This document shows positions 2,869-35,187 of a stretch of 64,000 nt of DNA, piece after piece. The position numbers and the translations under genes were made by a program. The stretch covers positions 2,979 through 66,978 of the forward strand of contig CP064975.1 in the NCBI GenBank assembly GCA_016699425.1, given 5' to 3'. Each line of letters starts with the position of its first letter. Position 1 is the first letter of the stretch. The notes beneath the pieces were generated by a model. The model was not told the origin of the DNA, ran no database searches, and saw nothing but the letters and a program-made list of their open reading frames with translations. The stretch is from Candidatus Moraniibacteriota bacterium. Its GTDB lineage: Bacteria > Patescibacteriota > Minisyncoccia > Moranbacterales > UBA1568.

Positions 2869-2896
2869 ATGTATTGAATGGAAAGAGGATGAAGAT

Positions 2897-5403: not shown

Positions 5404-5438
5404 TCCCGGTGATGGGTGATGGTAGGGAAGGAATATCT

Positions 5439-5607
5439 CTTAGTAACTATCTCAAATCTCCGTATTCTACTGCAAAAATATGGTTTTGGTTGCAAAACGC
5501 TCAGGTCTCGTCACGTTACTCTCCGAGTAACCTTCCTCACCCTTTACATTTTTCGCTCAAAACCATACTTCTTCGTAACGAAAGAGAGATTTGAGATAGT
5601 TACTGAG
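5439..5607. repeat. Structured inverted-repeat element: 22-bp near-perfect terminal IR (CTTAGTAACTATCTCAAATCTC / GAGATTTGAGATAGTTACTGAG) around a ~125-bp core with nested hairpins
   Basis: IR arms lie at 5439-5460 and 5586-5607. Internal GTTACTC-TCC-GAGTAAC and ATGGTTTTG/CAAAACCAT pairings are present. It sits between convergent genes. Confidence 0.5.
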
Positions 5608-5680
5608 GCATGGATAGAAAAGAAGAAACCGCGGACCGAATCATCGGCACCGCGGTTTTCTGTAGGGGATTGAAATGGGG

Positions 5681-6157
5681 CTACCGCCTCGCTTTAGCTT
5701 CAAGTTCCGTGAAAGTTCTTGAGATTTCGGTGGCGTGGCCCCTGACGAGATTCAGGAGGTTTTTCAGGAGAAGGTCAGCGAGATCTCGCATGCCCCTGAC
5801 AAACATGCTCTCAGAAACACCATCAGGGATATGGACTTGCCCGCCGAAATTGGTTTCTTCAAGAATGCTTCCTCGGATGACCCCAGCCAAGTTCTCGGCC
5901 CGGTACTGGTGCGCCAGGTACTCGTGCACCGAATGGGGAATAATCAACGCGTCGGGGATGAAACAGATTTTTCCCCGTATGGGCTCCCTAATACCAACGA
6001 AGACGGCAAACGTACCAGTTGTGCTGCTGCCGATAGTGGTCGACAGGAATGGTGGACCGGCATCGCGGCAATTATTCAAACAGGCCGTGTATGTTTTGAG
6101 CGTGCTCATAACAAGCTCTTTGCATAGCTCGAGATCTTCCTGCGTGAGACGTTCCAC
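5681..6157 (-). CDS. Hypothetical protein (158 aa)
   Basis: Intact ORF with no recognisable motif. Confidence 0.35.
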   Translation of the reverse strand: MERLTQEDLELCKELVMSTLKTYTACLNNCRDAGPPFLSTTIGSSTTGTFAVFVGIREPIRGKICFIPDALIIPHSVHEYLAHQYRAENLAGVIRGSILEETNFGGQVHIPDGVSESMFVRGMRDLADLLLKNLLNLVRGHATEISRTFTELEAKARR

Positions 6158-6228
6158 GTGACTCTCCTTGTGTGGTGTATGACGGGTGGGTGGACAAGTT
6201 GGGAAAGGACGGTAGAAGAGCGAGTGTA

Positions 6229-12568: not shown

Positions 12569-12620
12569 ACACAACTGTGAGCGATGGAGCGGCACTTCTG
12601 CACCGTTTAATCTGATGAGC

Positions 12621-12665
12621 GACACTACGCCTCCCGCCGCACCGACGGGATTGGGGATACAATAG
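12621..12665 (+). repeat. Cassette-boundary element copy a (intergenic; tiny ORF MSDTTPPAAPTGLGIQ*)
   Basis: GACACTACGCCTCCCGCCGCACCGACGGGATTGGGGATACAATAG. Confidence 0.8.
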
Positions 12666-15676: not shown

Positions 15677-15701
15677 GAAAACCTCAATACTATTTTTCAG
15701 T

Positions 15702-15746
15702 GACACCACCCCTCCCGCCGCTCCGACGGGCTTGGGGGTAGAATAG
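15702..15746 (+). repeat. Cassette-boundary element copy b (intergenic, after the LamG gene)
   Basis: GACACCACCCCTCCCGCCGCTCCGACGGGCTTGGGGGTAGAATAG. Confidence 0.8.
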
Positions 15747-17109: not shown

Positions 17110-17255
17110 TCGCATGCAGTAAAGTTCGCCACCCGCCGCGCCGACGGGGCTTGCCGTCGAGTAATCGAAGGCGGGCAGGGTTATTTTTTTTGGGGGGGTA
17201 CAGTGAGTGTCGCAGTGTTATTTGGAGGTTCGACCTCCAAGTGGATTGGAGGCTG
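17110..17255 (+). repeat. Second repeat family, copy 1: degenerate boundary element (..PPAAPTGLAVE*) plus GCCGTCGAGTAATCGAAGGCGGGCAGGG...CAGTGTTATTTGGAGGTTCGACCTCCAA palindrome
   Basis: Shares about 80 nt, including the TTGGAGGTCGAACCTCCAA palindrome, with 34745-34860. Confidence 0.6.
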
Positions 17256-17330: not shown

Positions 17331-17940
17331 ATGTCTACATATCCGGTCTCAGCGATAGTTTTTCGGCAGAGCCTTTTTTGGGATGCAGATCCCAAAAGAC
17401 TCGATACCGAGAAAAATGCCCGTTATATCATCGAGCGGGTGCTTGATTTCGGGAACGCTGAAGAGATACGCTGGCTCTTCCAGCGGTATCTCTCGGAACA
17501 GGGAAAGTGGGTGACGACGCTTTGGGAAAAGGGGACATTGTACGGACTCTTTCTGGGAGCCAAGGTGAGTTTCATTGCGTATCCTTCTTTTCGTCCCTTG
17601 GACGATCGCGTGCGGTATCAGTCTATACACCTTCTCTCGCCGAGGGATATTGCCGCGATGAAGATCGTGGCCGTGAGCCAACGTGGGAAGAAACGTGATT
17701 TCTTTGACCTGTACTGGCTGGCGCATCATGGTATCCCTCTGAAAGAGGCGATTCTTGGGGCTTTGGAGTAGTATAGGAATCAGCAACAGAGCCTGCCACA
17801 TTTCCTGAAGAGTCTCGTGTATTTCGCGGAGGCTGAAGACGATCCGATGCCTGAGATTTCTTTTCAGACTGATTGGCAAATGGTCAAAGAGTATTTCGAA
17901 ACGAACGTGCCTACCCTGACGAAGGAGTTGCTCCGGCTGG
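17331..17940 (+). CDS. Nucleotidyltransferase AbiEii/DUF1814-like C-terminal-domain protein, interrupted by an in-frame TAG at 17770-17772
   Basis: KIVAVSQRGKKRDFFDLYWL and, after the TAG, LVYFAEAEDDPMP, which are characteristic C-terminal motifs of that family. One frame runs through the stop. Confidence 0.4.
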
Positions 17941-18032
17941 AATAAACGCACGATTTCGGCGATTTTTCATGTCCGTTCATAGCACGGGTACCGTGAACAT
18001 GAGTGACTCCCAATCACCATTGGTGGTACTCC

Positions 18033-18077
18033 GACATCACCCCGCCGGCGGCGCCGACAGCGCTCGGGGTACAATAG
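18033..18077 (+). repeat. Cassette-boundary element copy c (intergenic remnant, directly upstream of the family A1 start)
   Basis: GACATCACCCCGCCGGCGGCGCCGACAGCGCTCGGGGTACAATAG, then AAAGGAAACAC ATG. Confidence 0.8.
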
Positions 18078-18089
18078 AAAGGAAACACA

Positions 18090-18925
18090 TGCACAAAACT
18101 CTTCTCCCAACACTCAAGGTCGTTTTCTTCCTCGGCCTCTTTCTCCTCTCGAGTCACTCGGTCTCAGCCGCCGGCCGGGTGTTTTCTGATGGGTTCGAGG
18201 ACGGCACTACAACTCAGTGGACAGATGGTACGACTGCTGGTGCAGAGGGGAAGTGTAACATCGTCACGTCAGCTCTCGACGGCGGTACGGGACCGAAATC
18301 CGGCACCAAGATGGCCCGGTGTAACTGGGATGGAACGCAAGGAGCGCTCTACGGACATTCGCATCAAGAGATGGATACGAGCTGGTCCATGGGGAATGAG
18401 GCGCTCATACGTTTTCATGTCAGAGTCGATAGCGACGTAGATGTAAAGGCGGGGTCAAAGTTATTCCGGTGGAACGGCTTCAACAGTTTTGGCGCGATCC
18501 AGTTCGAGTATGGTAACGGGGCCACACTGTACACGAGATCACACTCAGAAGATGGAACACAGCTTGGACCGACGAACTACGGGGGCGGAAACGCTTTCCG
18601 TAACGGTCAATGGCACCAGATCGAGCTGTATATCAAGAAGGGCAGCGGGGGCATCATCAGGGTATGGGTCGATGATGCATTGGTGTCTGAAGGACTAAAT
18701 ATCAACACGAACGATTCAACATGGAATCAGTTTCACATGATGTCGAATTGGTCGCTGAATGACGGCTGGGAGCATGATGCGAACAACCACATGTACTGGG
18801 ATGAGTTTGAGGTGTATTCGGACACCGGCACGAGCGGCACGGGTTCGCTGTCGGCTGGGACGGCAGCGCAGGGGTCAAGCGACACCACCGCTCCCGCCGC
18901 GCCGACCGGGCTTGGGGTACAATAG
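18090..18925 (+). CDS. Secreted ConA-like/beta-jellyroll protein, family A copy 1 (signal peptide ...SVSAAGRVFSDGFEDG), ending DTTAPAAPTGLGVQ
   Basis: Paralogs lie at 27613, 28499 and 30552. Conserved MARCNWDG, IRFxxRVDSDVD, WHQIE(L/I)Y and NWSL..HDANNHxYWD blocks. The last 45 nt are boundary element copy d (18881-18925). Confidence 0.7.
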
Positions 18926-18929
18926 AGAC

Positions 18930-20120
18930 ATGACGAACACGAACCAAAAACTTCTCACCCTTACCACATGCCTTACCTTAAGCTTTTTTAGCCTGGCTGG
19001 TTCTGCGTTGGCGGCACCGTCGATCAGTGGCACGTCCGGGACGTGGTCGCATGGTGGATCGGTGACGGTTAATGGTTCGGCTTTTGGGAGTAAGTCACCT
19101 GCGGCTCCGCTCGTGTGGGATCACGGGCAGTATGCCAATTTCACAGCAGCAGGATACGTCGGAGCTTGGCCGAATACTGGGCCAGGAGCGTCGAACATTG
19201 TGTATTCAACTGGCGTAAGTGGGGTCGTGATGCCACATGCGCGCACCACGACGTACGCAACAGGGTCACACCTTGGCGTGAACGACGAGACAGGCGGCAA
19301 CAACGTCCAACTCTGGACAACGTTCAACAAATCCAACGGTCAGCGGGTGTATGTGTCGTGGTACTCACGGCTAGACCCTGCGTGGCAGGGTGGGCTCGGC
19401 TCGCCATCAGACGGAAACTTTAAGACCTTTGGGTATTCCGGCGGCGGATACGGCCTGATCGTTTCGGGGGGAACAAATTGGTACCACGCGGGGTTCCTGA
19501 ACCCAGCGAGTTCCGATGCCCAGTATATAATCAACGACGATAACGGATCGACGCTTGATAACCCGGACGCAAACGGCGACAACTCATTTCATGAAAACAT
19601 GGTATCTCCCGGTAAGGGGTCGGCTAGTGACGCGTCGAAGTGGGTTAAAAATGAGGTCGAGATGCGGATTTACTCTACCAGCGGCCTGGGCGGCGGTTAC
19701 GTAAAGGCATGGGATAACGGCGTCCTAGGAATCAACTATGTGGGCAAGACGGACAACTGGTCCGGTACGTCGCGTAGCATCGGCGTAGGCGGATACGCTC
19801 GCGCGCAGGGCGCCACGACTCAGCGTCGCTACTTTGCCGATGTCTATATCGATACCAGCGCAGCTCGGGTGCTGCTGTGTCAGGGGTCTACTCTTGCGTC
19901 GCGCGGGGTGTGTGAGCCGCAGCCGCCGACGGCGTGGGGCGCATCGAGTGTAGCGGTTACGGTAAATGCCGGGAGATTCACGGACGGCTCGACAGCATAC
20001 TTGTACGTTTGTGACGATATTGGTTTATGCAATGCCAACGGCACAGCCATCACGATAGCCGGAAGTGGCGGGGGAGACACCACCCCACCCGCGGCTCCGA
20101 CGGGGCTGGGGGTACAATAA
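18930..20120 (+). CDS. Secreted protein, family B copy 1 (signal peptide then APSISGTSGTWSHGGSVTVNGSAFG), ending DTTPPAAPTGLGVQ
   Basis: Paralog at 29349-30544. The start lies 5 nt after the A1 stop. Boundary element copy e lies at 20076-20120. Confidence 0.7.
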   Translation: MTNTNQKLLTLTTCLTLSFFSLAGSALAAPSISGTSGTWSHGGSVTVNGSAFGSKSPAAPLVWDHGQYANFTAAGYVGAWPNTGPGASNIVYSTGVSGVVMPHARTTTYATGSHLGVNDETGGNNVQLWTTFNKSNGQRVYVSWYSRLDPAWQGGLGSPSDGNFKTFGYSGGGYGLIVSGGTNWYHAGFLNPASSDAQYIINDDNGSTLDNPDANGDNSFHENMVSPGKGSASDASKWVKNEVEMRIYSTSGLGGGYVKAWDNGVLGINYVGKTDNWSGTSRSIGVGGYARAQGATTQRRYFADVYIDTSAARVLLCQGSTLASRGVCEPQPPTAWGASSVAVTVNAGRFTDGSTAYLYVCDDIGLCNANGTAITIAGSGGGDTTPPAAPTGLGVQ

Positions 20121-20126: not shown

Positions 20127-20917
20127 ATGCATAAAACACAGCGGCTTGCATCTCTCTCGGTCTTTGGCATCATCCTCGGCCTCTTTCTCCTCTGGAGTCA
20201 CTCGGTCTCAGCCGCCGGCCGGGGGGTTTCGGATGGGTTCGAGGGCGGCACTACAACTCTTGGGCAGCTGGTACGACTACTGGTTCTGACGGCAAGTGTG
20301 ATGTCGTCTCGAGTGGCCCTCGACGGCGGATACGGCAGACGGTGGATCCAAAATGGCGCGATGTAATTGGGACGGGACTCAAGGAACTCTACGGCCACCG
20401 CAGCCAGAGATGATCAAGCGCGCCTGGTCGAAGTCGCGCGCTTCATCCGGTTCTGGGCGCTCGACAGCGATGTGGATTAAAGCAGGGCAAAGCTTTTCCG
20501 GCCTGGGGCCGTTAGTTTTTCAGGATTCCAGTTTGAATACGGGAGGGGCTACCCTTCTTTCCACTATTTACAAGAGCGATTCAACCCAGCTTGGCACAAC
20601 GAATTGGGGCGGTCCGAGGTGAGGGACGGTCATGGCACCTATCGAAATCTACTTGTTGGAATCAACACGGTCAGAATAAGGGCATTGCACGAATATGGGT
20701 AGACGAGGCTTGTGTTGGGACAAGGGGCAGCTGGGCCGGTTTTCACATGATATCAATTGGTCACTGAATCAGGCTGGGATCACGACGCGAACAATCACAC
20801 GTACTGGGATGATTTTGAGTTTCCGACACGGGACGGCACTGGTTCGATGTCGGCAGGGACGATCCAGGGCAGCGACACCACCCCGCCAGCGCGCCGACAG
20901 GGTTGGTGGTACAATAA
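20127..20917 (+). pseudogene. Degraded chimeric family-A cassette (A1-like N-terminus, A4-like C-terminus, multiple indels), ending with element copy f (20874-20917)
   Basis: Aligns at DNA level to 30552-31415 with several deletions and frame breaks. Confidence 0.6.
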
Positions 20918-20935
20918 CGCAAAGAGATAATACCT

Positions 20936-21800
20936 ATGCATAAATCGATGAGAGTTCGACACCTCGCTTGTTTGGTGGTAGTTCTCGGTGTGGGCATGGC
21001 TTTCGTTCCGTCTACTCAGGCGGTTGATTACCTCGGATCGACCGGAGTAGGGGAAACCTGGGAGACTCCGACCACCATCCCGACGAACTAGCCCTATCAG
21101 CAGTCCGCTTCGAACAGCTGTTCGCAGGCGAGTTGGAACGGCTGGGCAGGACGTGGCCTGGGGTGATACCTCGACCGAAGTGAAGGACACTTCCAGCAAT
21201 GCCAATCACGGCGATGCAACCAATATGTCCGCTGCCTCCGTCACTCCGGGTCGTATCGGGCAGGCACTCTCTTTTGACGGGACGGATGACACTGTCCTCG
21301 TCACGGACCCGGGGAGCGGCGTACTCGACTTCGGTGACACGGCGGACCTTACTGTTTCTGGGTGGTTCTACCGTGGCACGGCGACGACAGACGATACGAT
21401 AGTCGCCAAGCGTAACGGCATCACAGCCGGTGATACCGGGTATCTGGTTTTTATTGATGATGCGACCGATAAGCTTATTTTTGAGACCTCAGACGGAACG
21501 GATGAGTATAGCCTCACTTCGAGTGCGGCCTTTACTGCGGCCGGCTGGTATCATTTCGTCGTCGTGTGGGATCAGGACTCGGCGGCCAATTCCGAAATCT
21601 ATATCGACGGTGCGGCAGATGGCGCGACCGATGCGGGTACCATAGGCAATATTGGCGATCTTTCCAATGCTTTGGCTCTGGCGATCGGAACGGAGTCTGA
21701 TGCCGCCAACCCCTTTGATGGCAAGATCGATGACATCCGTGTGTATAGTCGAGCCTTGTCGACTGCTGAAGTAACGGAACTCTATAACCTGGGACGATAA
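20936..21800 (+). pseudogene. Short secreted LamG-domain cassette, copy 1 (in-frame TAG at 21089 replacing TGG, plus 1 frameshift)
   Basis: The first ~250 nt are nearly identical to 31434-31680. The LamG domain resembles domain 4 of the 12713 protein. It ends LYNLGR. Confidence 0.6.
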
Positions 21801-21879
21801 AAGAAGGCTATGAAAACCTACAGAGTGAGGCTTAGACTATCACGGTAGTGTGCCCCTACTGCTTGCGTTAGTTCGAGAG

Positions 21880-22535
21880 GCGTGTAATAAACGCATCGTT
21901 TTGACGCGGTTTGACGGGCTATGTATACTAATAGCGAAGGGCTGGGTATTGACAAGGTCGACCCATAGCCATTTTTTTCTAAGGTCCCACTTTGGGGGGG
22001 GTGAGTTCCCTCGCCTTCAGGCGATAACTTCCAGTACGATATACTGAAAGTATGACCACTGAATATCGAAAGTCTTCCCACTCCGTCTTCAGTATCCAAC
22101 TCCACATCGCCTGGATTACCAAGTACCGCTACAAGGTCCTGAAGGGTGAGATTGGACAAAGAGCCAGAGACCTCATCCGGCGCATCTGTATCGAAGAGAA
22201 TGTCGAGATCATCTCTGGTGCGTTGCTCCTGATCATGTCCACATTCTCGTCTCAGTCGACCCCTCGACCGCTCGAGCACCCTGGTCAAATGGAAAGGCAA
22301 GACATCCCGACAACTCCAGATGGAATACCCTTCACTCAAGAAACAGTACTGGGGCAGCACCTGTGGGCGAGAGGCTACTTTGTCGTCAGTGCCGGCAATG
22401 TCACCAAAGATATGATTAGGAATATATCGAACACCATTTTGAATCGAAAGAGACCGAAGATAGTTTCCGGGTCGAGGAGACGAGTTCCTAGATTTCCAAT
22501 CTAATCCCAATCTGTGCACTTCCAGTGCACAGTGG
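21880..22535 (+). mobile_element. IS200/IS605-family insertion sequence (approximate bounds) with terminal hairpin CTGTGCACT-TCC-AGTGCACAG at 22511-22531
   Basis: Contains a Y1 HUH transposase gene and subterminal hairpins (GGGCTATG...CATAGCC on the left, a perfect 9-bp stem on the right). Confidence 0.5.
22052..22504 (+). CDS. tnpA: IS200-like Y1 (HUH) transposase TnpA, read across 2 frameshifts
   Basis: KYRYKVL, PDHVHILVS (HUH, in a shifted frame) and YWGQHLWARGYFVVSAG (catalytic Tyr region). Confidence 0.7.
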   Translation: MTTEYRKSSHSVFSIQLHIAWITKYRYKVLKGEIGQRARDLIRRICIEENVEIISGALLLIMSTFSSQSTPRPLEHPGQMERQDIPTTPDGIPFTQETVLGQHLWARGYFVVSAGNVTKDMIRNISNTILNRKRPKIVSGSRRRVPRFPI

Positions 22536-22669
22536 TTGAAATGTTCGGATTTTTTTAATAAACCATACCGTATGCAGTATCGAAACAGAGACGCCGTTTT
22601 GGAATCAGAGAAAGGATGTGGGATAGATCGATGTACTAGACAGCAGCGTGTTTCCGTCGGACTCACCTC

Positions 22670-25600
22670 TTGTTTGATATTCTTGGGTTTCGGTTTATTT
22701 TTTGTCCCAGGTGTTTCTCTGCGACGCCTGTTTTTGATGAGACGACCATCGACGTTACGACGAGCGGTGATGTGAAGGCGGCGGGCGATATCAACAACGA
22801 TGGCTTCCCTGATGTCATCATGGGTGGGGCAGAGATGAGCTGGTATGAATATCCCGCGTGGACGAAACATACGATCGCCACGGCAATTGAGGAATTTACT
22901 ACTGACATGCAGGTTGTCGATGTTGATCTCGACGGAGACCTCGACATTGTGACGGCCGAGTTCGTCGCGGGCTCCAATGTCATCTGGCTGGAGAATCCTC
23001 TTCCAAGTGCCAGTCCCGCCACCACGCCGTGGACACGACACGTGATCGGTTCGCATGGCACGTGGGCCCATGATATTGAAGTCGGCGATGTCGATCGCGA
23101 CGGAAAAGTTGACGTCATTGCACGCAAGGCGAACACCTCTATTATCTTCCAGGACACGCCAACCACGTGGACACAAAAAGATATCACGAGCGCAGTAGGA
23201 GGGGATGAAGGACTCGGCATCGGCGATGTCGACCGCGACGGCGATATCGATCTGGTGGCAGACGGAGCATGGATCGAGAATCCCACCCATACCCGTACCG
23301 GAACGTGGACAGTGCATGCTGTGGCGAGCGGTTTTCCGGCGGACACGACCGGCACGGTGGCTGATATCAATGGTGACACGCGTCCCGATATCGTGTTCAT
23401 CGGTCAGCACGCGCGGGGAAAATTCGCATGGTATGAAGGACCGGCAGATCCGTTCTCAGGAGCCTGGATCGAGCATGTCGTCGATACCGCCATGGGAAGT
23501 CACAAGCTGAGTATCGGTGATGTCGATCGTGACGGCCGGCTCGATATCGTTGCGGGACTTGAGTTGCTTGAACTCGCGGTGTATACACAGGCGCCCGACA
23601 CGACCTTCACGAAAACTATCGTCTCGACGGTTGGTACGCACAATCAGCGGCTCGTCGATATCGGGAGCGATGGCGACCTCGACATCTTTGGTGCGAACTG
23701 GATCGGAAACCCTCCGACGACGATCTGGGAAAACGTGACGAACTTCACCGCGTCGCTCGATCAGTGGACATACGTGGAAGTCACCGGCAGTCATTCGCAG
23801 ACATTCGGATTGAACTTTGGCGACATGGACAATGATGGAAAGCGCGACATTGTCTCGGGACAGCATTGGTACAAGAATCCGGGCGGCGATCTGACCGGTG
23901 CGTGGACACAGTCGGCAGCTTTGCCGAACGCGATCGAGGCGATGCTGGTCGGCGATGTCGACGGCGATGCCTTGGCCGATGTGATCGGACAAAAGACCGA
24001 AGGAAGCGTGCTCGCCCTCTACTGGCTCGAGGCGGCGAATACTTCAGGGACAAGCTGGAATGCCGTCCGCATGGGCGATGTGCCGGCCACAAGCCATGTC
24101 TTAGGCGCGCAGGGATACCGCTTTGCTGATCTGCGTTCAGGTGGGAGACCGGAGATCGTGACATCGAGCAGCGTGGGAATTTGGTATTTCACGATCCCGC
24201 TTAATCCCGCAGTCGATCCCTGGACCAAGGTGCAGGTGAACGCTAATCCCTCCGATGAAGGGTTCGGTGCGGCTGATATCGATCATGACGGCGACATCGA
24301 CATTGCCGCTGGGACGGGTGATACCAAGCTCGTCGAGTGGTACCGCAATCCCGGGACAGGTCTTGGCAATTGGCAGTCTTTCACGATCGGCAATATGAAC
24401 GAAGCGGTCTACCCCGATCGTTTCGCGGTGGCTGACTTGAACGGCGATAATCGTCCCGATATCATCGGCACGGAAGAAAACGGCGTGGCCTCGGGTGCGC
24501 AGACGTTTTGGTGGGAAGCGCCGGCTGATCCGACCACGGCTAACTGGGTGCGTCACGCGCTGGTCGCGCAGGGGAGTACCAACGCCATGGATATCGGCGA
24601 TATCGATCGCGACGGTGACATCGACATCGTGCTTGGTGAGCACAAGGGCTCGCTCAAGACGGCGGTCTGGCAGAATAGTGGTACGGGCGCGTTTACTGAA
24701 CATGTCGTGGGATCCGGTAAAGAGGCGCACCTCGGTGCACGCGTGGTCGATATCGACCAAGACGGCGACGACGATCTCGTGAGTATCGCTTATGACACGC
24801 CGCAGTTCATCCATCTCTACCGTAATGACGCGTCGGGAATCCCGACTCCTCCCGACACGACTTCCCCGGTGATTTCAGGTGTGAGTGCGACGAGCATTGC
24901 TAGTGCGAGTGCGAACATCGTGTGGACGACAGACGAAGCTGCGAATGGGCAAGTGGAATATGGCACGACGGCTGCCTATGGACAACTCTCCACGCTCCAG
25001 AGCGCTCTTACGCAGAACCACGATATCGCTCTCCCTAATCTGACGGCCAATACGCTCTACCACTATCGCGTGCACAGTGCCGATGGTTCCGGGAACACAT
25101 CCGTCTCCGGCGACTTCACCTTTACCACGACGAACCAGCCTGCCCTTCCGGGTCTGGTCGCTGCCTATAACTTTAATGCAGGGAGTGGCACGACGGCAGC
25201 CGATTTCTCGGGTAACAATATCACGGGCACATTGGTGAACGGTCCTTCATGGACAACGGCAGGGAAAAACGATGGCGCGCTCTCGTTTGATGGCGCGAAT
25301 GATTATGTGAACCTCGGCGCATCCAGCGCGCTGCAGCTTCCCGGAAGTTTTACGCTCTCTGCCTGGGTCTATCCGACAACGTTTTCCGGTGATCGTGACA
25401 TCATCACCAGGGTGAGCGCGGTTTCCTCCGAATATCACCTGCAGACTACCGGCACCCAGATTCAAGTCGGGTTTTCCAGCGGTGGGAGCTGGTACTATCA
25501 GAACGCTTCGACCGCCAGTATGCCACTCAATGCGTGGAGTCATGTGGTCAGCGTCTTTGATGATGCGAATAATACCTTCACGATGTATATCAACGGTGTC

Positions 25601-27544
25601 CTGCAAGGGACGCAGTCGGTCGCTGCATCGCCCGCTCCCAGTACCAATGAAACGCACATCGGCATGGGCTGGACCGGCCAGTCATGGAGCGGCAAGATCG
25701 ATGATGTCCGTGTCTACAACCGCGCACTCATAGCGAGTGAGATCGCGACGGATATGAATACGCCCGTAGGAGGCCCCGTCGTCGATACGACGCCGCCAGT
25801 ACGGACCAACGGCGCGCCGACAGGGACACTCCCGGAGACGACCACGCAGGCCACTCTGTCGCTTGTGACCGATGAAAACGCAACCTGCAAATACGGCACG
25901 ACGGCGAATACTGCCTATGCTGCTATGACCGCGGTGATGGGCACGACGGGCGGGGCGAATCATTCCACAGCGGTTACCGTTACTGCCGGAACTGCGTACA
26001 CCTACTTTGTGCGTTGCGAGGATACGGCCGGCAATCAGAACACGACAGACTACGACATCACCTTTGCTGTCGCGGCGCCGGATACGGTAGCGCCGACCGT
26101 TTCTATCACGTCTCCTGCAAATGGTGCGATCGTCGCCGGAACCGTGGCAGTCGCCGCCAACGCCTCTGATGACCGGGGAGTGGCTTCTGTTGAATTCAGT
26201 GTCGATGCCGTCTCGCATGCTACCGACACGACCACACCGTTCACGGCGAATGTTGACACGCTGCTTCTCTCGGAGGGGACGCATACGCTCTCCGCTCGCG
26301 CGCTCGATGCGGCCGGCAATGAAAATACCGCGACGGTCACAGTAACGGTGCAAAATACCGACACGGTCGTCCCAAGTATGCCGACGAATCTGCTCTCTAC
26401 GGCGGTTTCGACGACGCAGATCAATCTCGCTTGGAACGCGAGTACTGACAACGTCGGTGTCACCGGATACCGCATATGGAGGAATGGTGTTTCGGTCGCG
26501 ACGACGACCGTGCTCTCCTACCAAGATACCGGACTGACTCCGTCAACGGCGTACACGTATGCCGTGAGCGCCTTTGATGCGGCGGGGAATGAGTCGGCAC
26601 TGTCCGCGACTGCTTCTGCCACGACGCTCACTCCGGATACGACCGCCCCGGTGATCAGTGCCATCACTGCAGCCGCAATCACTACCACAGGAGCTACGAT
26701 AACTTGGACGACGAACGAAGCCGCGGATACTCAAGTGGAGTATGGGGCGACCACAAGTTATGGACAGTCGACGACACTCAATACGGCTATGCTCACGAGT
26801 CATAGTCAGAATCTTTCCGGACTCTCTCCCGGCACGCTCTATCACTATCGCGTGAAGTCGAGGGACGCGGCGGGGAATCTGGCCGTGTCAGGCGATATGA
26901 CATTGACGACCACATCGGCCCCGACCGGACTGATCGGACACTGGAAGTTTGATGAGGGGACTGGTACCACGACGAGCGACGCTTCATCGAACGGGTATAG
27001 TGGCACGCTCACCAATGGTCCGGCATGGACGACGGGGAAAGTCGGTAGCGCGCTCAATTTCGACGGTGCCAATGATTACGTCAACATGGGGTCGCAGACC
27101 GGGCTTCGGCTCCCAGGGAGCTTCACGCTTGCCGCCTGGGTCTATCCCACGACACTCTCCGGAGACCGCGACATCATCACCAAGGTGAATCCAAGCTCGT
27201 CGGAGTATCATTTTCAGGTGACGGACAACAAGCTGCAGCTCGGATTCTCGAACGGGAGCAATAACTGGTACTATTATGAAGTTCCCACTACCGGTATGTC
27301 GCTCAACGCCTGGAGTCATGTTGCCGGTGTCTTCGATGACGCGGGCAATGTCATGAGAATCTATATCAACGGCGTGGCACAGGGGTCTAAGGCAGTGACC
27401 GCCTCTCCGGTCGTGGGTACGAGCCAGGTGCGTGTCGGTATGGGTTGGAACGGCCAGTCATGGAAGGGGAAGATCGATGATGCGCGTATCTATAGCCGCG
27501 CCCTCTCCGCGAGTGAGATCACCGCGCTTGCCACAGGCAACTGA
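22670..27544 (+). CDS. Giant surface protein: FG-GAP/VCBS beta-propeller repeats, FN3 domains, two LamG domains and Ig-like domains (1624 aa). The true N-terminal signal peptide is probably in another frame at 22620-22700.
   Basis: More than 10 GDVDRDGxxDIV-type FG-GAP repeats. FN3 repeats (VWTTDEAANGQVEYGTT; ITWTTNEAADTQVEYG). LamG motif IDDVRVYNRAL twice. The hydrophobic GLTSCLIFLGFGLFFVPGVSL segment upstream is in a different frame. Confidence 0.8.
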   Translation: MFDILGFRFIFCPRCFSATPVFDETTIDVTTSGDVKAAGDINNDGFPDVIMGGAEMSWYEYPAWTKHTIATAIEEFTTDMQVVDVDLDGDLDIVTAEFVAGSNVIWLENPLPSASPATTPWTRHVIGSHGTWAHDIEVGDVDRDGKVDVIARKANTSIIFQDTPTTWTQKDITSAVGGDEGLGIGDVDRDGDIDLVADGAWIENPTHTRTGTWTVHAVASGFPADTTGTVADINGDTRPDIVFIGQHARGKFAWYEGPADPFSGAWIEHVVDTAMGSHKLSIGDVDRDGRLDIVAGLELLELAVYTQAPDTTFTKTIVSTVGTHNQRLVDIGSDGDLDIFGANWIGNPPTTIWENVTNFTASLDQWTYVEVTGSHSQTFGLNFGDMDNDGKRDIVSGQHWYKNPGGDLTGAWTQSAALPNAIEAMLVGDVDGDALADVIGQKTEGSVLALYWLEAANTSGTSWNAVRMGDVPATSHVLGAQGYRFADLRSGGRPEIVTSSSVGIWYFTIPLNPAVDPWTKVQVNANPSDEGFGAADIDHDGDIDIAAGTGDTKLVEWYRNPGTGLGNWQSFTIGNMNEAVYPDRFAVADLNGDNRPDIIGTEENGVASGAQTFWWEAPADPTTANWVRHALVAQGSTNAMDIGDIDRDGDIDIVLGEHKGSLKTAVWQNSGTGAFTEHVVGSGKEAHLGARVVDIDQDGDDDLVSIAYDTPQFIHLYRNDASGIPTPPDTTSPVISGVSATSIASASANIVWTTDEAANGQVEYGTTAAYGQLSTLQSALTQNHDIALPNLTANTLYHYRVHSADGSGNTSVSGDFTFTTTNQPALPGLVAAYNFNAGSGTTAADFSGNNITGTLVNGPSWTTAGKNDGALSFDGANDYVNLGASSALQLPGSFTLSAWVYPTTFSGDRDIITRVSAVSSEYHLQTTGTQIQVGFSSGGSWYYQNASTASMPLNAWSHVVSVFDDANNTFTMYINGVLQGTQSVAASPAPSTNETHIGMGWTGQSWSGKIDDVRVYNRALIASEIATDMNTPVGGPVVDTTPPVRTNGAPTGTLPETTTQATLSLVTDENATCKYGTTANTAYAAMTAVMGTTGGANHSTAVTVTAGTAYTYFVRCEDTAGNQNTTDYDITFAVAAPDTVAPTVSITSPANGAIVAGTVAVAANASDDRGVASVEFSVDAVSHATDTTTPFTANVDTLLLSEGTHTLSARALDAAGNENTATVTVTVQNTDTVVPSMPTNLLSTAVSTTQINLAWNASTDNVGVTGYRIWRNGVSVATTTVLSYQDTGLTPSTAYTYAVSAFDAAGNESALSATASATTLTPDTTAPVISAITAAAITTTGATITWTTNEAADTQVEYGATTSYGQSTTLNTAMLTSHSQNLSGLSPGTLYHYRVKSRDAAGNLAVSGDMTLTTTSAPTGLIGHWKFDEGTGTTTSDASSNGYSGTLTNGPAWTTGKVGSALNFDGANDYVNMGSQTGLRLPGSFTLAAWVYPTTLSGDRDIITKVNPSSSEYHFQVTDNKLQLGFSNGSNNWYYYEVPTTGMSLNAWSHVAGVFDDAGNVMRIYINGVAQGSKAVTASPVVGTSQVRVGMGWNGQSWKGKIDDARIYSRALSASEITALATGN

Positions 27545-27612
27545 GTCCATCTCTATCACATTTGGACTTTGACCGCTCGGAGACAATTCAAACAGTTCAA
27601 ACCAATGATGGC

Positions 27613-28493
27613 ATGAGACGATCGTTTCTCATCACCCTCTACTCTCTCCCTCTTTTCGTGGGCCTTTTCTTCGCGAGTGACGCCTCCGCCGCCGGGCGGG
27701 TGTTCTATGACGGCTGGGAGAGTGGGAATGCGAATGCGTGGGTGTCTGGAGGTACGGGGATATATGGCAAATGTGATGTCGTCACGTCGGCGCTGGACGG
27801 CGGGGTTGGCCCACTGTCCGGCACGAAGATGGCTCGATGTAACTGGGACGGCACGGCAGGACCCTTCGGGCACCAGAATCAGGCAATGGCAATTTCAGGG
27901 TGGTCAAAGAGCCGCGAGATGCTCATTCGGTTTTGGACGCGTGTCGATAGTGACGTGGACGTTGCAAAGGGAGCAAAGCTTTTTCGCGGGCCGGGGGGCA
28001 CGAGTTATTCAGGCTGGCAGTTTGAAGAAGGTGCGGTGGCAGCGCTTTTCTCGGCGCTCTTCAAATCAAATGCTCAGTCGATTGGGAGCGCCAATTATGG
28101 TTGCTCTGCGCAACCAGGGTATAACTACGACCCGCCGATCCGCAACGGCAACTGGCATCAGATCGAAATATATCTCAAGGAATCGACTTCTGGCAGTACC
28201 AACGGGGAGGCTCGGATCTGGGTAGACGATAAACTTTGTTGGGAGGCATTGAATCAGAATACGGATGATCCGCTCGGACCATCCTATTGGGCTGATTTCC
28301 ACGTGATGTCGAATTGGTCGCTGACCGAAGTCGACTGGGCGCACGATGCCAACAATCACATTTATTGGGACGACTTCGAGGTGTACTCCGACACCGGCAC
28401 CGGTGGCACTGGCACCCTGTCAGCTGGCACGATGACACAGGGGAGTACCGACACCACCCGCCGGCGGCTCCGACGGGACTGGGAGTACAATAG
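27613..28493 (+). CDS. Secreted family A copy 2 (frameshift inside the terminal element, 28447-28493 = copy g)
   Basis: MRRSFLITLYSLPLFVGLFFASDASAAGRVFYDGWESG... The element has lost one C (ACCACCCGCCGGCGGCT), so the ORF runs on. Confidence 0.65.
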
Positions 28494-28498
28494 AAAAT

Positions 28499-29341
28499 AT
28501 GAACAGGATATTTCTCGCACTTTTCGGTATCACCCTCGCTCTCGGATTCTTTTTCCTCTCTCCACATTCAGCCTTAGCCGCGGGGCGGGTGCTGACAGAC
28601 GGTTTTGAGTCCGGCAACAATAATCTCTGGTCGCAGAATCCGTTAGGCAAGAACAAATGCCCTGTCGTCATCCAATCGACGTCGGTCGGAAGTGTCGCAC
28701 CGCATACCGGTAGCTACGCGGCCCAGTGTAATTGGACGAACCTCGACTGGCAGGATCCCAACTTTTATAACGCCAATTTTTTTGAATCCAGTAACTACAC
28801 CTCAGATGTCTTTATTCGTTTTTGGGTCCGCTACGACAATGATGTGGACTTAAACACTGGTTCTAAACTACTACGTTTTGGTGATCTTGGTGGTTCGTTT
28901 TGTGACTTCCAATTGGAACAGGGAGTGAGTGCAGGAGTTATTTGTCAGATATATGCCGTCCGCGGAGGAAATGCCAATTGGCTCAGTCCCAACTGCTACT
29001 CAGCGGCGACAAACATCAGGCAGTGGAACAAATTTGAGATCTATATAAAAGAGGGCGTTAGTGGTCAGGCAAAAGTGTGGCTCAATGATAATTTATTCTG
29101 TGACCGAAGCGGCAACACGACCCAAGACGAGTCATGGGCGCGTGTGAACGCCGTTTCAAATTGGTCCAATGAAGTCGGTTGGGAACACGACATGAATAAT
29201 CATACGTACTTCGACGATTGGGAAATCTGGACCGACAATGCCAATGAAGCACACACGGGCACGATGGCAGGCGGTGACATCGCCGCCAACGGCACCGACA
29301 CCACCCCACCCGCCGCGCCGACGGGACTGGGGGTACAATAA
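28499..29341 (+). CDS. Secreted family A copy 3, ending DTTPPAAPTGLGVQ (element copy h, 29297-29341)
   Basis: Signal peptide ...SALAAGRVLTDGFESG. The start lies 5 nt after the previous stop. Confidence 0.7.
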   Translation: MNRIFLALFGITLALGFFFLSPHSALAAGRVLTDGFESGNNNLWSQNPLGKNKCPVVIQSTSVGSVAPHTGSYAAQCNWTNLDWQDPNFYNANFFESSNYTSDVFIRFWVRYDNDVDLNTGSKLLRFGDLGGSFCDFQLEQGVSAGVICQIYAVRGGNANWLSPNCYSAATNIRQWNKFEIYIKEGVSGQAKVWLNDNLFCDRSGNTTQDESWARVNAVSNWSNEVGWEHDMNNHTYFDDWEIWTDNANEAHTGTMAGGDIAANGTDTTPPAAPTGLGVQ

Positions 29342-29348
29342 ACTCATC

Positions 29349-30544
29349 ATGACCACTGCAAAATACAAATCAATCTTTCTGGCTGTTTTTTTACCCCTCC
29401 TCTTCTTCAGCTTGGCAAAAATTGCACTCGCTGCTCCCTCTATCAGTGGCACCAGTGGAACGTGGTCGCACGGCGGCAGCGTGACGGTCAACGGGTCGGC
29501 CTTTGGGACCAAGACCACGGCCGCGCCGCTTGTTTGGGATGATGCGACAGGGGGGACGCTGCTGGACAAGTGGGATGGCAAATACCCAAATTGCACAACC
29601 GACCATCGGTACGACCCAAACTACACGACCAGCATTCGGGGGATCTCGCTGCCGCATGCCCGTGCGACGAAATACATAGCTGGCGCGCATGCGAGTACAG
29701 GATCGGCGAATTCAGAATGCGGTTATGACGTAGGGTTTTGGAAGTTTCGGCCTACGATGCCTGGCTATCCGTCGTATACCTACTTTAGCTACTATTTTCG
29801 GGTCGATGACAACTTCCAGTTCGGCCTGAACGACGGGGACAACAACTTCAAAATGGCGTCCGTCGATCAGGGCCATGTCGCGGCGTTGGGTAGTCCGTAC
29901 ACCATGTCGGTCAACATCGGCGTGCCCTATTCACCCCCTGGATCCCCGCAGTACGTCATTTATTCGACCAACGAACGATTCGACATCCCTGATCTGAACG
30001 GGCACAGCGGATTCTGGAATTTCAACGGGAATGATTGGTGGTCAGGGGTATGGACGAAAATAGAATACGAATACAAACATTCCACGCCCGGCACGGACGG
30101 GTGGCTAAAAGTTTGGGAAGACGGCCGCGTGCTGGTCGATTACAGGGGGCGTTTCGGCCTGCCGCCGCCTGAGAATGACCTGACGCAAACGCATCTTATT
30201 GGGGGTTACTCGCGTAATTACCAGATCAACACCACAACTGGAACTAACTACCGGTATTACGCCGATGTGTACTACGACACGTCCGCGGCGCGTGTCCTTT
30301 TGTGCCAGAACAACACATACTCATCGAGAGGAATTTGCGAGAACCAGCGCGCGACCTCTTGGGCTAGCGGCTCGATTGCGACGACAGTCAATGCCGGCCG
30401 GTTCGCTAACGCGAGTACGGCTTATCTGTATGTGTGCGACGACGCCGGGGCATGCAACGCCAACGGAACGGCGATCGTCATTGCAGCTGGCGGCGGCGGG
30501 GACACCACTCCTCCTTCCGCGCCGACCGGACTGGGGTACAATAG
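29349..30544 (+). CDS. Secreted family B copy 2, ending DTTPPSAPTGLG (element copy i, 30501-30544). Its stop is out of frame because of a 1-nt loss in a G run, so the ORF track fuses it with the next gene.
   Basis: AAPSISGTSGTWSHGGSVTVNGSAFGTK... is the same N-terminus as 18930. Confidence 0.7.
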
Positions 30545-30551
30545 AGACATC

Positions 30552-31415
30552 ATGAAAAACTCATTTCAGAAATCATTTCTTATTCTTTTCACGCTCGCTT
30601 TAGGTTTGTCACTAGACTCAAGCAGCGCGTTCGCCGCCGGCCGGGTGTTTTCTGATGGCTTCGAGGACGGTACGACGAATGCTTGGGCACCCGGCGAGAG
30701 TAGTGGTTATTACGCCAAGTGTGATGTCGTCTCGAGTGCCCTCGATGGCGTGATAGGCCCGCACGGTGGCTCGAACATGGCACGCTGTAATTGGGACGGG
30801 ACTCAAGGAACTTATGGCCACCGCAGCCAGGAGATGATCAAGAGCGCTTGGTCGAAGTCGCGCGAAAGCTTCATCCGGTTCTGGGTGCGCATCGACAGTG
30901 ATGTGGATTACAAACAGGGAGCTAAGCTGTTTCGCGGTCCTGGGGCCGTTAGTTTTTCAGGATTCCAGTTTGAATACGGGACAGGGGCTACCCTTCTTTC
31001 CACTATTTACAAGAGCGATTCAACCCAGATTGGCACAACGAATTGGGGCTGTGGTCCTGAGGTGAGGGACGGTGCATGGCACTCTATCGAAATCTACTTG
31101 TTGGAATCAACACCTAGTCAGAATAATGGCATTGCACGAATATGGGTAGACGACGGCTTGTGTTGGGAAGCGACAAGTGTCAATACCGACGACCCGCTGG
31201 GGGCCGGGTACTGGGCCGATTTTCATATGATATCCAATTGGTCACTGAATCCAGGTTGGGATCACGACGCGAATAATCACACGTACTGGGATGATTTTGA
31301 GATTTTCTCTGACACGGGTACCGGCATGACTGGTTCGATGTCGGCAGGGACGATCACTCAGGGGGGCAGTGATACCACCCCGCCAGCTGCGCCGACAGGG
31401 TTGGTGGTACAATAA
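30552..31415 (+). CDS. Secreted family A copy 4, ending DTTPPAAPTGLVVQ (element copy j, 31371-31415)
   Basis: MKNSFQKSFLILFTLALGLSLDSSSAFAAGRVFSDGFEDG... Confidence 0.7.
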   Translation: MKNSFQKSFLILFTLALGLSLDSSSAFAAGRVFSDGFEDGTTNAWAPGESSGYYAKCDVVSSALDGVIGPHGGSNMARCNWDGTQGTYGHRSQEMIKSAWSKSRESFIRFWVRIDSDVDYKQGAKLFRGPGAVSFSGFQFEYGTGATLLSTIYKSDSTQIGTTNWGCGPEVRDGAWHSIEIYLLESTPSQNNGIARIWVDDGLCWEATSVNTDDPLGAGYWADFHMISNWSLNPGWDHDANNHTYWDDFEIFSDTGTGMTGSMSAGTITQGGSDTTPPAAPTGLVVQ

Positions 31416-31433
31416 CGCAAAGAGATAATACCT

Positions 31434-32280
31434 ATGCATAAATCGATGAGAGTTCGACACCTCGCTTGTTTGGTGGTAGTTCTCGGTGTGGGCATGGCTT
31501 TCGTTCCGTCTACTCAGGCGGTTGATTACCTCGGATCGACCGGAGTAGGGGAAACCTGGGAGACTCCGACCACCATCCCGACGAACTGGCCCTATCAGCA
31601 GTCCGCTTCGAACAGCTGTTCGCAGGCGAGTTGGAACGGCTGGGCAGGACGTGGCCTGGGGCGATACGACGACCGAAGTGAAGGACACCTCCGGCAACGG
31701 GGACCACGGCGACGCGACGAATATGTCGACTGCTTCCGCCACTCCGGGTCGTATCGGGCAGGCGCTGAACTTCGACGGAGTGAATGACTATATTGCATTG
31801 GGGTCACCTGCTGTACTGGACGATATCGTCAATCTGACAACATGCGCGTGGGTCAACCCGGACGGTACGGCTGATGGGAGTATCGTCACCAAGGATGATT
31901 CTACAACCGGCTGGAACGTGTACTACACTGAGGCGGATGGTCGCGCACGCTTCGTACGGGGGTGGTCGGGCGGTGACGCTTTTTGGCAGACGGGCAGTGG
32001 GGTAATTCCAGATAGTACATGGACGCATATTTGTCTCTCATACAACGATAGTTCAACCACCAATGATCCAGCGTTCTACATCAATGGCGCCCTGGTCTCG
32101 TCCACGGAAACGGTAGCTCCGTCCGGGACGCCCAATAGCGATGCGACCTTCGTAGGGGCGATTGGGTCATATGGCAATGGCTTGAATGATTTTTTCGACG
32201 GCAAGATCGACGAAGTCCGGGTGTACAACCGGGTGATCACGTCCGCCGAAGTGACTCAGCTGTATAATCTGGGGCGGTAG
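31434..32280 (+). CDS. Short secreted LamG-domain cassette, copy 2 (one frameshift at ~31655: ggcag versus ggccag)
   Basis: Signal peptide, then WPYQQSASNSCSQASWNGWAG, then a LamG domain like domain 3 of the 12713 protein. It ends LYNLGR. Confidence 0.65.
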
Positions 32281-32313
32281 CCTCTTATAAAAATGAATGA
32301 GCAGTACTGCAGC

Positions 32314-32358
32314 GACACCACAGCGCCTGCTGTGCCGAGGGGGCTCGGAGTACAGTGA
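32314..32358 (+). repeat. Cassette-boundary element copy k (intergenic, diverged: TTAPAVPRGLGVQ*)
   Basis: GACACCACAGCGCCTGCTGTGCCGAGGGGGCTCGGAGTACAGTGA. Confidence 0.7.
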
Positions 32359-32369: not shown

Positions 32370-33294
32370 ATGACTGGAAATTCCTTCGGAAGGAGACGAG
32401 CTTCAGTGGCAGTCGTGGTCATCAGTCTATTCGTTGCACCATCGGCGGCGGAAGCTACAGTCTACATTAACCAAAATGCTGAATCCCTCACGTGTGGAGC
32501 GAATATTCCGGAGTCAGTTTTTTGGCCGGGGGGCGATGGGAATCCAACGGCGGCCACGGGGCATGTGAATTGTGGAGGTGCTCCTCAAGGCAATAAGTAT
32601 TTTGAGTGGACCACGGTTGCCGGGCAGGGGGACGGCGGGAAATTCAACTCCCGTGGGACCCACGAGACCGACCCCGAATTTGCTCGGGACGACGATTTAC
32701 CTCGGCATGTATTTTAATTTCACTCGGATCAACGGGGTGGATATATGGTACAAGCCTGGAAATGATACCGGCGATAAAGGAACTGAATTATTTGGAAATG
32801 GTATTCGCTGGGATATCGGTCAAGGGTGGGGCACGTGGGGTGGTACGCAAGGATCAGTCGGACACTATACGATATGGGAAGCGAATCCGTCGTTTCACCT
32901 CAACCCTTCAATCGAATACTATGATGCGATTCCCAATAATCGAGGGGGGTATGGAGTAGGGCATTCCGTGCAGCTCGCGTATGACACCTGGCACTCACTC
33001 GTCCGAGTGATCAGGTTTTCGAATACCAATACGGGGTACGTTGCATTGTATGCTGATGGTGTCCTTATTTCAGAATATGACAATATAATCACTGCAGCGA
33101 ACAATACTCCAGACATCGACATCATCGGACTCGGTGGAACGATGTGTCAGCCAGCGTATGATTGCCCGCCCCATCACCGAAGATATGATGCATTCTTACT
33201 CACCGACAGCTGGCAAGATATCGTAAACGGTGGTTATCTCGGTGGGAGTGACACCACCCCTCCTGCGGCGCCGACAGCGCTCGGGGTGCAGTGA
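32370..33294 (+). CDS. Secreted protein, family C (one frameshift ~32700), ending DTTPPAAPTALGVQ (element copy l, 33250-33294)
   Basis: Signal peptide AVVVISLFVAPSAAEA. The C-terminal body resembles the fragment at 34804-35157. Confidence 0.6.
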
Positions 33295-34744: not shown

Positions 34745-34860
34745 ACACCACCCCTTCCGACACCACTCCTCCCACCTCACCGACGAGTCTCGCCGTCGAG
34801 TAATTGGAGGCGGTCGGGGGGTATGATTGGCAGTGTTATTTGGAGGTCGAACCTCCAAAT
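34745..34860 (+). repeat. Second repeat family, copy 2 (..DTTPPTSPTSLAVE* + GCCGTCGAGTAATTGGAGGCGGTCGGGG...CAGTGTTATTTGGAGGTCGAACCTCCAA)
   Basis: Matches 17110-17255. Confidence 0.6.
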
Positions 34861-35157
34861 GAAAATGTGCAGTTCAAGTTCCAGTATAATTCAGGCAGCG
34901 GATCACCCGGGACTGGGAACACGGCAATCTGGATCGACGATACCCAGATTTATACGGCGACGGATGACTGGGTCGATGGGAACAAGGGCTTTAACTATAT
35001 CCTCCTCTCGGACTTCTTCTCGGATCGGGATGGATCGAGCTTCACCGCTCAGATCGATTTTGATGACTTGCGTGTGACTGACACTCGCCCTGCGATGCCG
35101 AGCGGCGGTGGCGACACCACCCCGCCAGCTGCGCCGACGGGGCTCGCCAGAGAGTAA
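34804..35157 (+). pseudogene. C-terminal remnant of a family C-like cassette, ending DTTPPAAPTGLARE (element copy m, 35113-35157)
   Basis: No credible N-terminus. The frame continues through the upstream TAA of repeat copy 2. Confidence 0.5.
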
Positions 35158-35187
35158 CCCTCGGAGGCCGACTGGGTTGGGGGTACA

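Follow-up and report, generated by a model that had tools for sequence, protein, structure and literature searches.

The window analysed here is a 64-kb stretch of contig CP064975.1 from a metagenome-assembled genome (MAG) of Candidatus Moraniibacteriota, the single genome on which this work is based. Between ~12.6 and 36.7 kb the window carries an array of secreted-protein genes, tightly packed and all on the + strand, in which one short 5' coding block precedes two different LamG (lectin-like) domains, once at locus 1 (copy 1, 20352-21160) and once at locus 2 (copy 2, 30780-31660). The arrangement probably reflects ectopic gene conversion within a fast-turnover array of secreted-protein genes. 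The mosaic adds one more case of a known process and reveals no new mechanism, and the same 5' block before two LamG domains is collateral damage of ectopic conversion among tandem paralogues rather than adaptive module shuffling. The features on which this reading draws are as follows.

15026-15676, + strand: domain 4 of the 987-aa protein LamG4, an ancient paralogue of the C1 LamG fragment
18089-18925, + strand: A1, a family-A paralogue (QQR78678) whose 5' end matches that of psiA
20127-20917, + strand: psiA, a decayed family-A pseudogene, A1-like in its 5' part to ~20259 and A4-like in the rest, with 17-19 deletions
20936-21147, + strand: C1 F 5' stump, with a premature TAG at 21089-21091, ending at GGGC 21144-21147
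20878-21165, + strand: tract S3 in copy 1, covering the tail-coding end of psiA, a spacer, the F 5' stump and the first ~20 nt of LamG
21144-21800, + strand: C1 LamG (Laminin_G_3) fragment, the NCBI 215-aa protein QQR78683, out of frame with the stump
30552-31415, + strand: A4, an intact family-A coding sequence and the source-like copy of the duplicated segment
31375-31663, + strand: tract S3 in copy 2
31434-31645, + strand: C2 F 5' stump, ending at GGGC 31642-31645
31642-32280, + strand: C2 LamG fragment, the NCBI 185-aa protein QQR78689, in the +1 frame relative to the stump
34867-35157, + strand: F 3' remnant, residues 241-332 of the F protein P0045 (the last ~92 codons), present only in locus 2

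Self-BLAST of the window aligns 20211-21268 with 30633-31766 at 87% identity, with 80 gap columns and an E-value of 0, and recovers two copies of the block and no further fragments. A preliminary description of this DNA, made by reading the sequence alone, had reported the duplication, and its coordinates for the core were accurate: the region of high identity spans 20352-21165 and 30776-31663. It had also called copy 1 deletion-riddled, in agreement with the pairwise alignment, where 20 of the 22 indels in the duplicated span are deletions in copy 1, each of 1-32 nt. Copy 2 has the composition that was proposed for it, namely the 3' end of A4, a conserved tail element, an 18-nt spacer and a 5' block with its start codon at 31434 (MHKSMRVRHL...). 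Divergence between the copies is layered, as seen in the mismatch of copy 1 against copy 2 for each segment (coordinates of copy 1):

20141-20259, + strand: S1, 42% mismatch, A1-like and outside the duplicate
20260-20351, + strand: S2a, 21.5% mismatch
20352-20877, + strand: S2b, 7.3% mismatch, with 17 deletion events
20878-21165, + strand: S3, 0.7% mismatch (2 of 282 columns), binomial P = 1e-12 against the flanks
21166-21277, + strand: S4, 19.6% mismatch
21278-21800, + strand: S5, 52% mismatch

The central layer, S3, is a tract of 288 nt that is 99.3% identical, apart from one 1-nt indel, and lies between flanks that are 7-20% different. Beyond the 5' block the copies do part company, as first described, in two stages: mismatch is 0.7% to 21165, 19.6% to 21277 and 52% thereafter. 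In S4, the proportion of synonymous differences (pS) is equal across pairs, at 0.50 for C1 and C2, 0.53 for C1 and LamG4 domain 4, and 0.54 for C2 and domain 4, with a ratio of non-synonymous to synonymous rates (dN/dS) of ~0.12. Because synonymous divergence is alike in all three pairs, S4 is old and the right end of the recent tract lies near 21165. To judge from its sequence, S4 is the conserved N-terminal strand of this LamG subtype, an old homology maintained by constraint. A recent breakpoint at 21277/31775 ("PGRIGQAL.FDG") was considered and rejected on the same synonymous divergence, and also because a natural protein, P0025, has the same pairing of N-terminal strand and body.

The left part of copy 1 is occupied by psiA, whose open reading frame (ORF) is in pieces of 79, 89 and 82 aa. 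Sliding identity against A1-A4 places psiA at 85-93% to A1 over ~20171-20260 and at 81-100% to A4 thereafter, so the chimera of an A1-like N-terminus and an A4-like C-terminus that had been suggested for this pseudogene is real. Mismatches in S2b comprise 11 synonymous and 20 non-synonymous changes, which is near neutral. Across the same segment (psiA 20352-20877 against A4 30776-31374), A4 has A/T where psiA has G/C at 21 of the 31 mismatches.

The origin of the 5' block was found outside the LamG proteins. The block encodes MHKSMRVRHL...DYLGSTGVGETWETPTTIPTNWPYQQSASNSCSQASWNGWA and matches the N-termini of two proteins, P0035 (81% aa identity) and P0045 (75% aa identity). P0045 is an intact 335-aa protein that ends in the tail peptide and belongs to a small separate family, named F here; the block corresponds to the first ~70 codons of F, that is, a signal peptide and about 45 mature residues. 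A full HMMER scan of 1.84 billion representatives returned 20 clusters of family F, and in 18 of these the match extends well beyond the N-terminal block. Since it hardly ever occurs apart from the remainder of the F protein, the block is integral to the F fold and not a portable leader. What had been taken for a modular 5' signal-peptide block is therefore the stump of a broken family-F gene, and it is out of frame with the LamG sequence that follows. By tblastn, F residues 15-76 fall at 31470-31655 and at 20972-21157, and P0045 and P0035 match the C1 stump at 73-79% aa identity; residues 241-332 of P0045 fall at 34867-35145, with 93.5% aa identity over 93 residues. With the 5' end of F at A4 and its 3' end displaced, an F gene once lay after A4 and has been split by ~3.2 kb, an insert that consists of the LamG fragment, a tail remnant, the frameshifted gene D and AbiEi/AbiEii.

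Three-frame translation indicates that, in both copies, the F stump is joined to the interior of LamG at the 4-nt microhomology GGGC, one base out of frame. The F parent reads ...GGAACGGCTGGGC before the junction and CAACGAAGG after it, the LamG parent ...ATGGACGGGC before and AGGATGTA after, and the chimera ...GGAACGGCTGGGC before and AGGACGTG after, each parent being continued exactly on either side of GGGC. The one-base offset arises because GGGC sits in different codon phases of the two parents, and a sequencing error is not needed to account for it. Two other origins of the frameshift were considered. A sequencing error (one missing G) was judged unlikely given the exact continuation of the parents, and a 2-nt deletion in the LamG "LVGLW" motif was rejected because the upstream frame is family F up to the junction. 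In addition, copy 1 carries a TGG>TAG change at 21089-21091, upstream of the junction. As the stump joins LamG out of frame, a 'module swap' of this kind yields dead genes, and QQR78683 and QQR78689 probably correspond to gene fragments downstream of a dead junction.

The 3' parts of C1 and C2 are clear Laminin_G_3 domains, scoring 94.6 and 94.0 bits against Pfam PF13385 (cutoff 27.6; 8.5e-27 for C1). Four such domains are present in the 987-aa protein LamG4 (12731-15676), and the preliminary description had likened C1 to domain 4, at about 85% nucleotide identity, and C2 to domain 3. The first figure was too high. C1 and domain 4 (15026-15627) share 71% of nucleotides and 73% of amino acids, synonymous divergence (dS) is saturated (pS 0.72), and dN/dS is 0.07. 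The second likeness holds for the body of C2, at a distant 45% aa identity to domain 3, and fails for its first 42 residues, which are domain-4-like (64%). The longest exact match between LamG4 and C1 or C2 is 14-15 nt, and a further LamG-containing protein of the array, of 1624 aa with FG-GAP, FN3 and LamG domains, matches the fragments over at most 14 nt. Saturated dS together with exact matches of at most 15 nt speaks against any recent transfer between LamG4 and C1 or C2; on this sequence comparison domain 4 and C1 are paralogues of ancient origin, and domain 4 has not been a recent donor.

These observations suggest a history in three steps. The first, which the junction and the stranded F end record directly, was the breakage of the F gene after A4 at locus 2, with ~70 codons joined to a LamG interior at GGGC and the 3' end of F left behind. 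Locus 2 alone has the F 3' remnant, and an origin of the junction there, followed by copying to locus 1, is therefore the simplest reading. In the second step, non-allelic homologous recombination would have copied the 3' part of A4, the tail, the spacer, the F stump and ~20 nt of LamG from locus 2 to locus 1, where the recipient would have been a paralogous B1-A-LamG cluster whose own LamG gene, distinct and of ancient divergence, would have had its 5' end overwritten. The gene order B-A-(stump::LamG) is common to both loci and would thus have supplied the flanking homology, with the left crossover in the conserved 5' region of family A and the right crossover in the conserved LamG N-terminal strand. 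At both ends the breakpoints coincide with the longest exact matches between paralogues. On the left, in the AAGRVFSDGFEDG-coding region of family A, 18167-18192 equals 30633-30658 (26 nt) and 18151-18179 equals 20195-20223 (29 nt); on the right, in the LamG N-terminal region, 21172-21190 equals 31670-31688 (19 nt) and 21242-21265 equals 31740-31763 (24 nt). The third step, suggested by the divergence layers, would be repetition: S2b, 7% diverged with many deletions, and the recent 288-nt S3, at 0.7%, require at least two events, and the A1-like 5' end of psiA calls for a third exchange, separate from these, with the neighbouring gene A1. As the C1 LamG ORF is intact, the loss of the 5' end of a working LamG gene to conversion was probably recent. 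The identity of S3, the position of the breakpoints and the A1/A4 chimera together bear out the original proposal that recombination between conserved blocks produced the mosaics.

The further step taken in the preliminary description, to a cassette-based surface-variation system with the four-domain LamG protein as donor or archive, was not supported. On that account the promoterless LamG fragments and the conserved 5' and 3' blocks would form a reservoir for recombination into expressed lectins such as the 987-aa protein. It would suit fragments that lack their own signal peptide and start but retain long open LamG frames, the conserved tail and start blocks that flank most array genes, and the exchange that has recurred about a single junction; moreover, the silent cassettes of known systems likewise resemble pseudogenes. 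Nevertheless, we regard it as highly improbable. Only two fragments are found by self-BLAST of the window, their exact matches to LamG4 (at most 15 nt) and to the 1624-aa LamG protein (at most 14 nt) are very short, dS between C1 and domain 4 is saturated, and conservation of the tail element is at the level of the peptide rather than of a DNA site. What was exchanged is an out-of-frame junction with the stump of an unrelated family, and a copied piece that carries such a dead junction indicates recombination debris and not a programmed system. Among window ORFs of at least 150 aa the only mobile-element gene is that of an IS200-like Y1 transposase, and no recombinase, integrase, invertase or reverse transcriptase is encoded; an inverted-repeat scan of the window gave short chance-like matches only and no long ones, no attC-like repeats were reported, and Rfam gave no matches. 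Individual programmed systems were rejected on these and related grounds. A diversity-generating retroelement is at odds with the lack of a reverse transcriptase and with mismatches that are spread over all four bases and free of adenine bias; an integron cassette array, with the lack of an IntI integrase and of attC-like repeats and with a 45-nt element that is a coding tail; and an invertase shufflon, with copies that are all on the + strand and have neither a recombinase nor flanking inverted repeats. For a silent-cassette system, only two block copies are present in the window, no expression site or archive layout is visible, and LamG4 has no long near-identical blocks or cassette-identical segments to serve as flanks (14-15 nt, 71% nucleotide identity, pS 0.72).

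A different kind of explanation attributes the duplicate, the deletions or the identical core to errors in a long-read metagenome assembly, either mis-assembly or the cross-polishing of repeats. In its favor, the window's frameshifts cluster in the repeated array, with two of them being 1-nt shortfalls at C4 and G5 runs in the tail element, and short reads are not uniquely placeable in a 288-nt repeat. However, copy 1 has its own multi-base deletions (4, 5, 6 and 32 nt) and substitutions as well as unique flanks (the A1-like 5' end and the domain-4-like LamG), the duplicate of ~1.1 kb is far below typical long-read length, the window contains no N runs, and the two parents account for every base of the GGGC junction. 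In addition, an independent public assembly has a 1703-nt Logan contig (L020, run SRR11674038) that matches 17365-19067, adjacent to locus 1, at 100% identity, indicating that the same population was sequenced in that run. An artefact of this kind is accordingly very unlikely in our judgement. We give equally little credence to a functional chimera, in which the F signal peptide and N-terminal segment are expressed in fusion with LamG, through a +1 translational frameshift or because the true sequence is in frame, to give two secreted single-LamG lectins that share a leader. The F-stump and LamG frames are both open over 31549-31787, both LamG ORFs are intact, and NCBI annotates the LamG parts as proteins. 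Against this, the frame offset follows from the parental codon phases at GGGC, copy 1 has an additional in-frame TAG ahead of the junction, the F stump keeps only part of a fold whose other examples are nearly all full-length, and the overlap, read by eye with no formal scan, has no obvious slippery or RF2-like motif.

Several points weigh against gene conversion as we have set it out. The direction and number of the conversion events are inferred from one genome. Both LamG fragments keep intact ORFs of 209-215 codons, so that either inactivation was very recent or the fragments are still used somehow. In 20352-20877 there are 17 deletion events against 31 substitutions, an unusually high ratio that ordinary pseudogene decay does not readily account for. 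Homopolymer frameshifts in the repeated tail also make local sequence quality uncertain: a 1-nt shortfall at 28456 (C-run, A2 tail) gives A2 a 331-aa read-through tail, and another at 30533 (G-run, B2 tail) fuses B2 and A4 as a 725-aa ORF. These shortfalls may reflect real slippage, or else long-read errors that remain because the repeat is out of reach of short-read polishing, and the near-identity of S3 could likewise be inflated by cross-polishing. The style of the locus tags is that of what we take to be a Nanopore and Illumina activated-sludge MAG project, an attribution that is unverified. A pipeline of Nanopore assembly with Racon, Medaka and Illumina-Racon polishing is described in PMC8012365, its tie to this assembly being unverified.

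Ectopic gene conversion among secreted-protein genes has known counterparts in paralogous outer-surface and adhesin genes. In the babA/babB chimeras of Helicobacter pylori and in the opa genes of Neisseria, as here, conserved 5' and 3' segments enclose divergent middles, non-reciprocal copying, probable in the present array, gives chimeric genes, the tracts end in short shared identities and no dedicated recombinase is required. Unlike those systems, the array studied here has transferred a dead, out-of-frame junction, one recipient is a decaying pseudogene and no functional switch is evident; the families concerned (polysaccharide-lyase-like jelly roll, F and LamG) and the host, a member of the candidate phyla radiation (CPR, Patescibacteria), are also different. 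Promoterless fragments near full-length paralogues, with signs of gene conversion, are shared with Neisseria pilE/pilS, Borrelia vlsE and Anaplasma msp2, whereas in the present array a single expression site bordered by long identical sequence is missing, as are a multi-copy archive and any recent transfer to the full-length LamG protein, and the junction is out of frame. As with the displaced C-terminal modules of rhs and cdiA, the 3' fragments start at a conserved motif of their parent family, which in this array is LamG's DGQDV.W.DTTTEVKD strand; in contrast to rhs and cdiA, no toxin/immunity pairs accompany the fragments, identity to the putative parent reaches only 71% with saturated dS, and the fragments are joined to what is left of an unrelated gene. 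Finally, copy 1 resembles the deletion-biased decay of reduced bacterial genomes in having almost only deletions among its indels (20 of 22) and near-neutral substitutions, and departs from it in the high indel:substitution ratio (17:31) noted above.

The element that closes most genes of the array deserves separate mention, as a tail common to unrelated secreted families is a more interesting lead than the duplication itself. About 15 copies of this 45-nt element occur in the array, all on the + strand, with the start of the next gene 5-25 nt further on, at the following positions.

First seven positions, + strand: 12618-12665, 15699-15746, 18033-18077, 18881-18925, 20076-20120, 20870-20917, 28447-28495
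Remaining positions, + strand: 29297-29341, 30501-30556, 31371-31415, 32306-32358, 33250-33294, 35105-35188, 36697-36741

The element encodes the C-terminal peptide (S/G)DTTPPAAPTGLGVQ and a stop codon. The peptide DTTPPAAPTGLGVQ terminates most array proteins, drawn from five or more secreted families that are unrelated to one another (A, B, D, E and F), and orphan remnants with no attached gene are also found. The element is absent after C1, where the transposase gene stands, and is present after C2 and LamG4. Entropy by codon position is 0.19/0.15/0.97; with variation mainly at third codon positions, the tail is conserved as a peptide and not as a DNA or recombination site. Scans for a promoter or terminator role gave nothing above shuffled expectation, and the tail pattern had no matches in viral contigs. 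Homologues from other metagenomes also carry the tail peptide. In another Moraniibacteriota MAG (L012), a family-A domain heads a 1104-aa protein in which "SSDTTPPTSPTNLAATS..." starts an FN3 domain, so that the tail looks like a truncated FN3 linker and first strand. The tail may accordingly be a truncated FN3 strand, or it may act as a sorting or anchoring tag specific to the lineage. Within L003 9281-11641 (WBZP01005273.1), P0045 itself is flanked by proteins with weak cohesin-domain matches, and its downstream neighbor has a fuller copy on L004 whose C-terminal sequence is dockerin-like by eye; together L003 and L004 hint at a cohesin/dockerin-type surface assembly near tail-bearing proteins.

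The array as a whole is bounded by a P-type ATPase gene on one side and an ABC-F gene on the other, and holds families A, B, D, E and F together with the LamG proteins. Families B, D and F are of no known fold, and B1 and B2 are 45% identical; family E is a beta-helix, chondroitinase-B-like. The family-A members, A1-A4, are predicted to be polysaccharide-lyase-like jelly rolls. A1 scores exactly at the Pfam PF14099 cutoff (29.9 bits), and the AlphaFold model of A4 (predicted local distance difference test score, pLDDT, 80) has as its top PDB folds the PL20 lyase 2zzj and PL36 and PL14 lyases, with template modelling (TM) scores of 0.5-0.63. Two toxin-antitoxin-type insertions (a DUF4143 ATPase, and AbiEi/AbiEii, of which AbiEii has a Pfam match) and the transposase gene interrupt the array. 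Two further array genes referred to above are:

22052-22504, + strand: IS200-like Y1 transposase gene (Pfam PF01797 at 2.8e-15), directly downstream of C1
27613-28608, + strand: A2, a family-A gene whose product, like that of A1, is identical to an NCBI protein from a Candidatus Moraniibacteriota MAG

Within 21900-22560 a perfect hairpin (CTGTGCAC..GTGCACAG) at ~22513-22533 follows the transposase gene. Gene D (32370-33294) has its signal peptide in one frame and its body and tail in another, the frameshift lying within 32572-32717, a stretch with a G5 run; the DNA of its tail (..PTALGVQ) is 90% identical to an orphan tail upstream of A1 (18033-18073). Homologous segments at 17129-17243 and 34768-34861, with 81 of 116 aligned columns identical, each lie beside an AbiE-type module. 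Both hold a tail-like remnant (..PTGLAVE and ..PTSLAVE, each followed by a stop), a G-run and a perfect hairpin (TTGGAGGT(T)CGA(A)CCTCCAA), and the segment at 34768-34861 abuts the F 3' remnant exactly. The two segments may be the end of a mobile cassette.

Family A is rare, 5.8 billion proteins having yielded 23 clusters. The closest relative of A4, at 72% aa identity, is closer than any paralogue in the window and is encoded at L001 10001-10846 (Logan DRR438492), between the portal and capsid genes of a phage-like contig, without the tail peptide; four IMG/VR contigs (L016-L019) carry family-A relatives at ~35% identity. This sequence evidence suggests that family A has been exchanged between phages and hosts. 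A genome scan for relatives gave a sole syntenic relative, L010, in which positions 1-8000 are syntenic with 36.8-47.5 kb of the window (ABC-F, MacB/FtsX, ABC, ferric-reductase-like and DsbA genes). L010 is labelled uncultured Bdellovibrionales, and this taxonomic label may be wrong. It has only one A-like and one B-like gene, both tailed, directly before ABC-F, and from this difference the content of the array turns over quickly. In a Candidatus Taylorbacteria contig (L015 467-8035) a multi-LamG gene lies upstream of a family-A gene, so the LamG/family-A neighborhood recurs in another Parcubacteria lineage. A metagenome pattern scan for the F block returned one contig, which was unrelated, and exact-protein look-ups of A3, A1, a 117-aa ORF, C1, a psiA ORF and B1 found nothing.

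We also considered a broader idea, in which the 24-kb array would be a recombination hotspot diversifying the glycan-binding and glycan-cleaving secretome of an episymbiotic CPR bacterium. The tail and the start/signal-peptide blocks would then act as portable homology for module swaps, including swaps with phage-borne family-A relatives, the dead junction would be one failed outcome, and DTTPPAAPTGLGVQ would be a lineage-specific sorting or anchoring tag shared by all modules. We think this idea unlikely. A practical consequence of ectopic conversion in this array concerns public annotation, in which the two "LamG domain-containing proteins" (QQR78683, QQR78689) should be treated with caution. 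More broadly, the array shows a reduced genome of an uncultured CPR bacterium remodelling a cluster of lectin-like and lyase-like secreted proteins by duplication, ectopic conversion, microhomology joins, mobile-element insertion and rapid deletion. Judging from their sequences, these secreted proteins probably act on host or environmental glycans.

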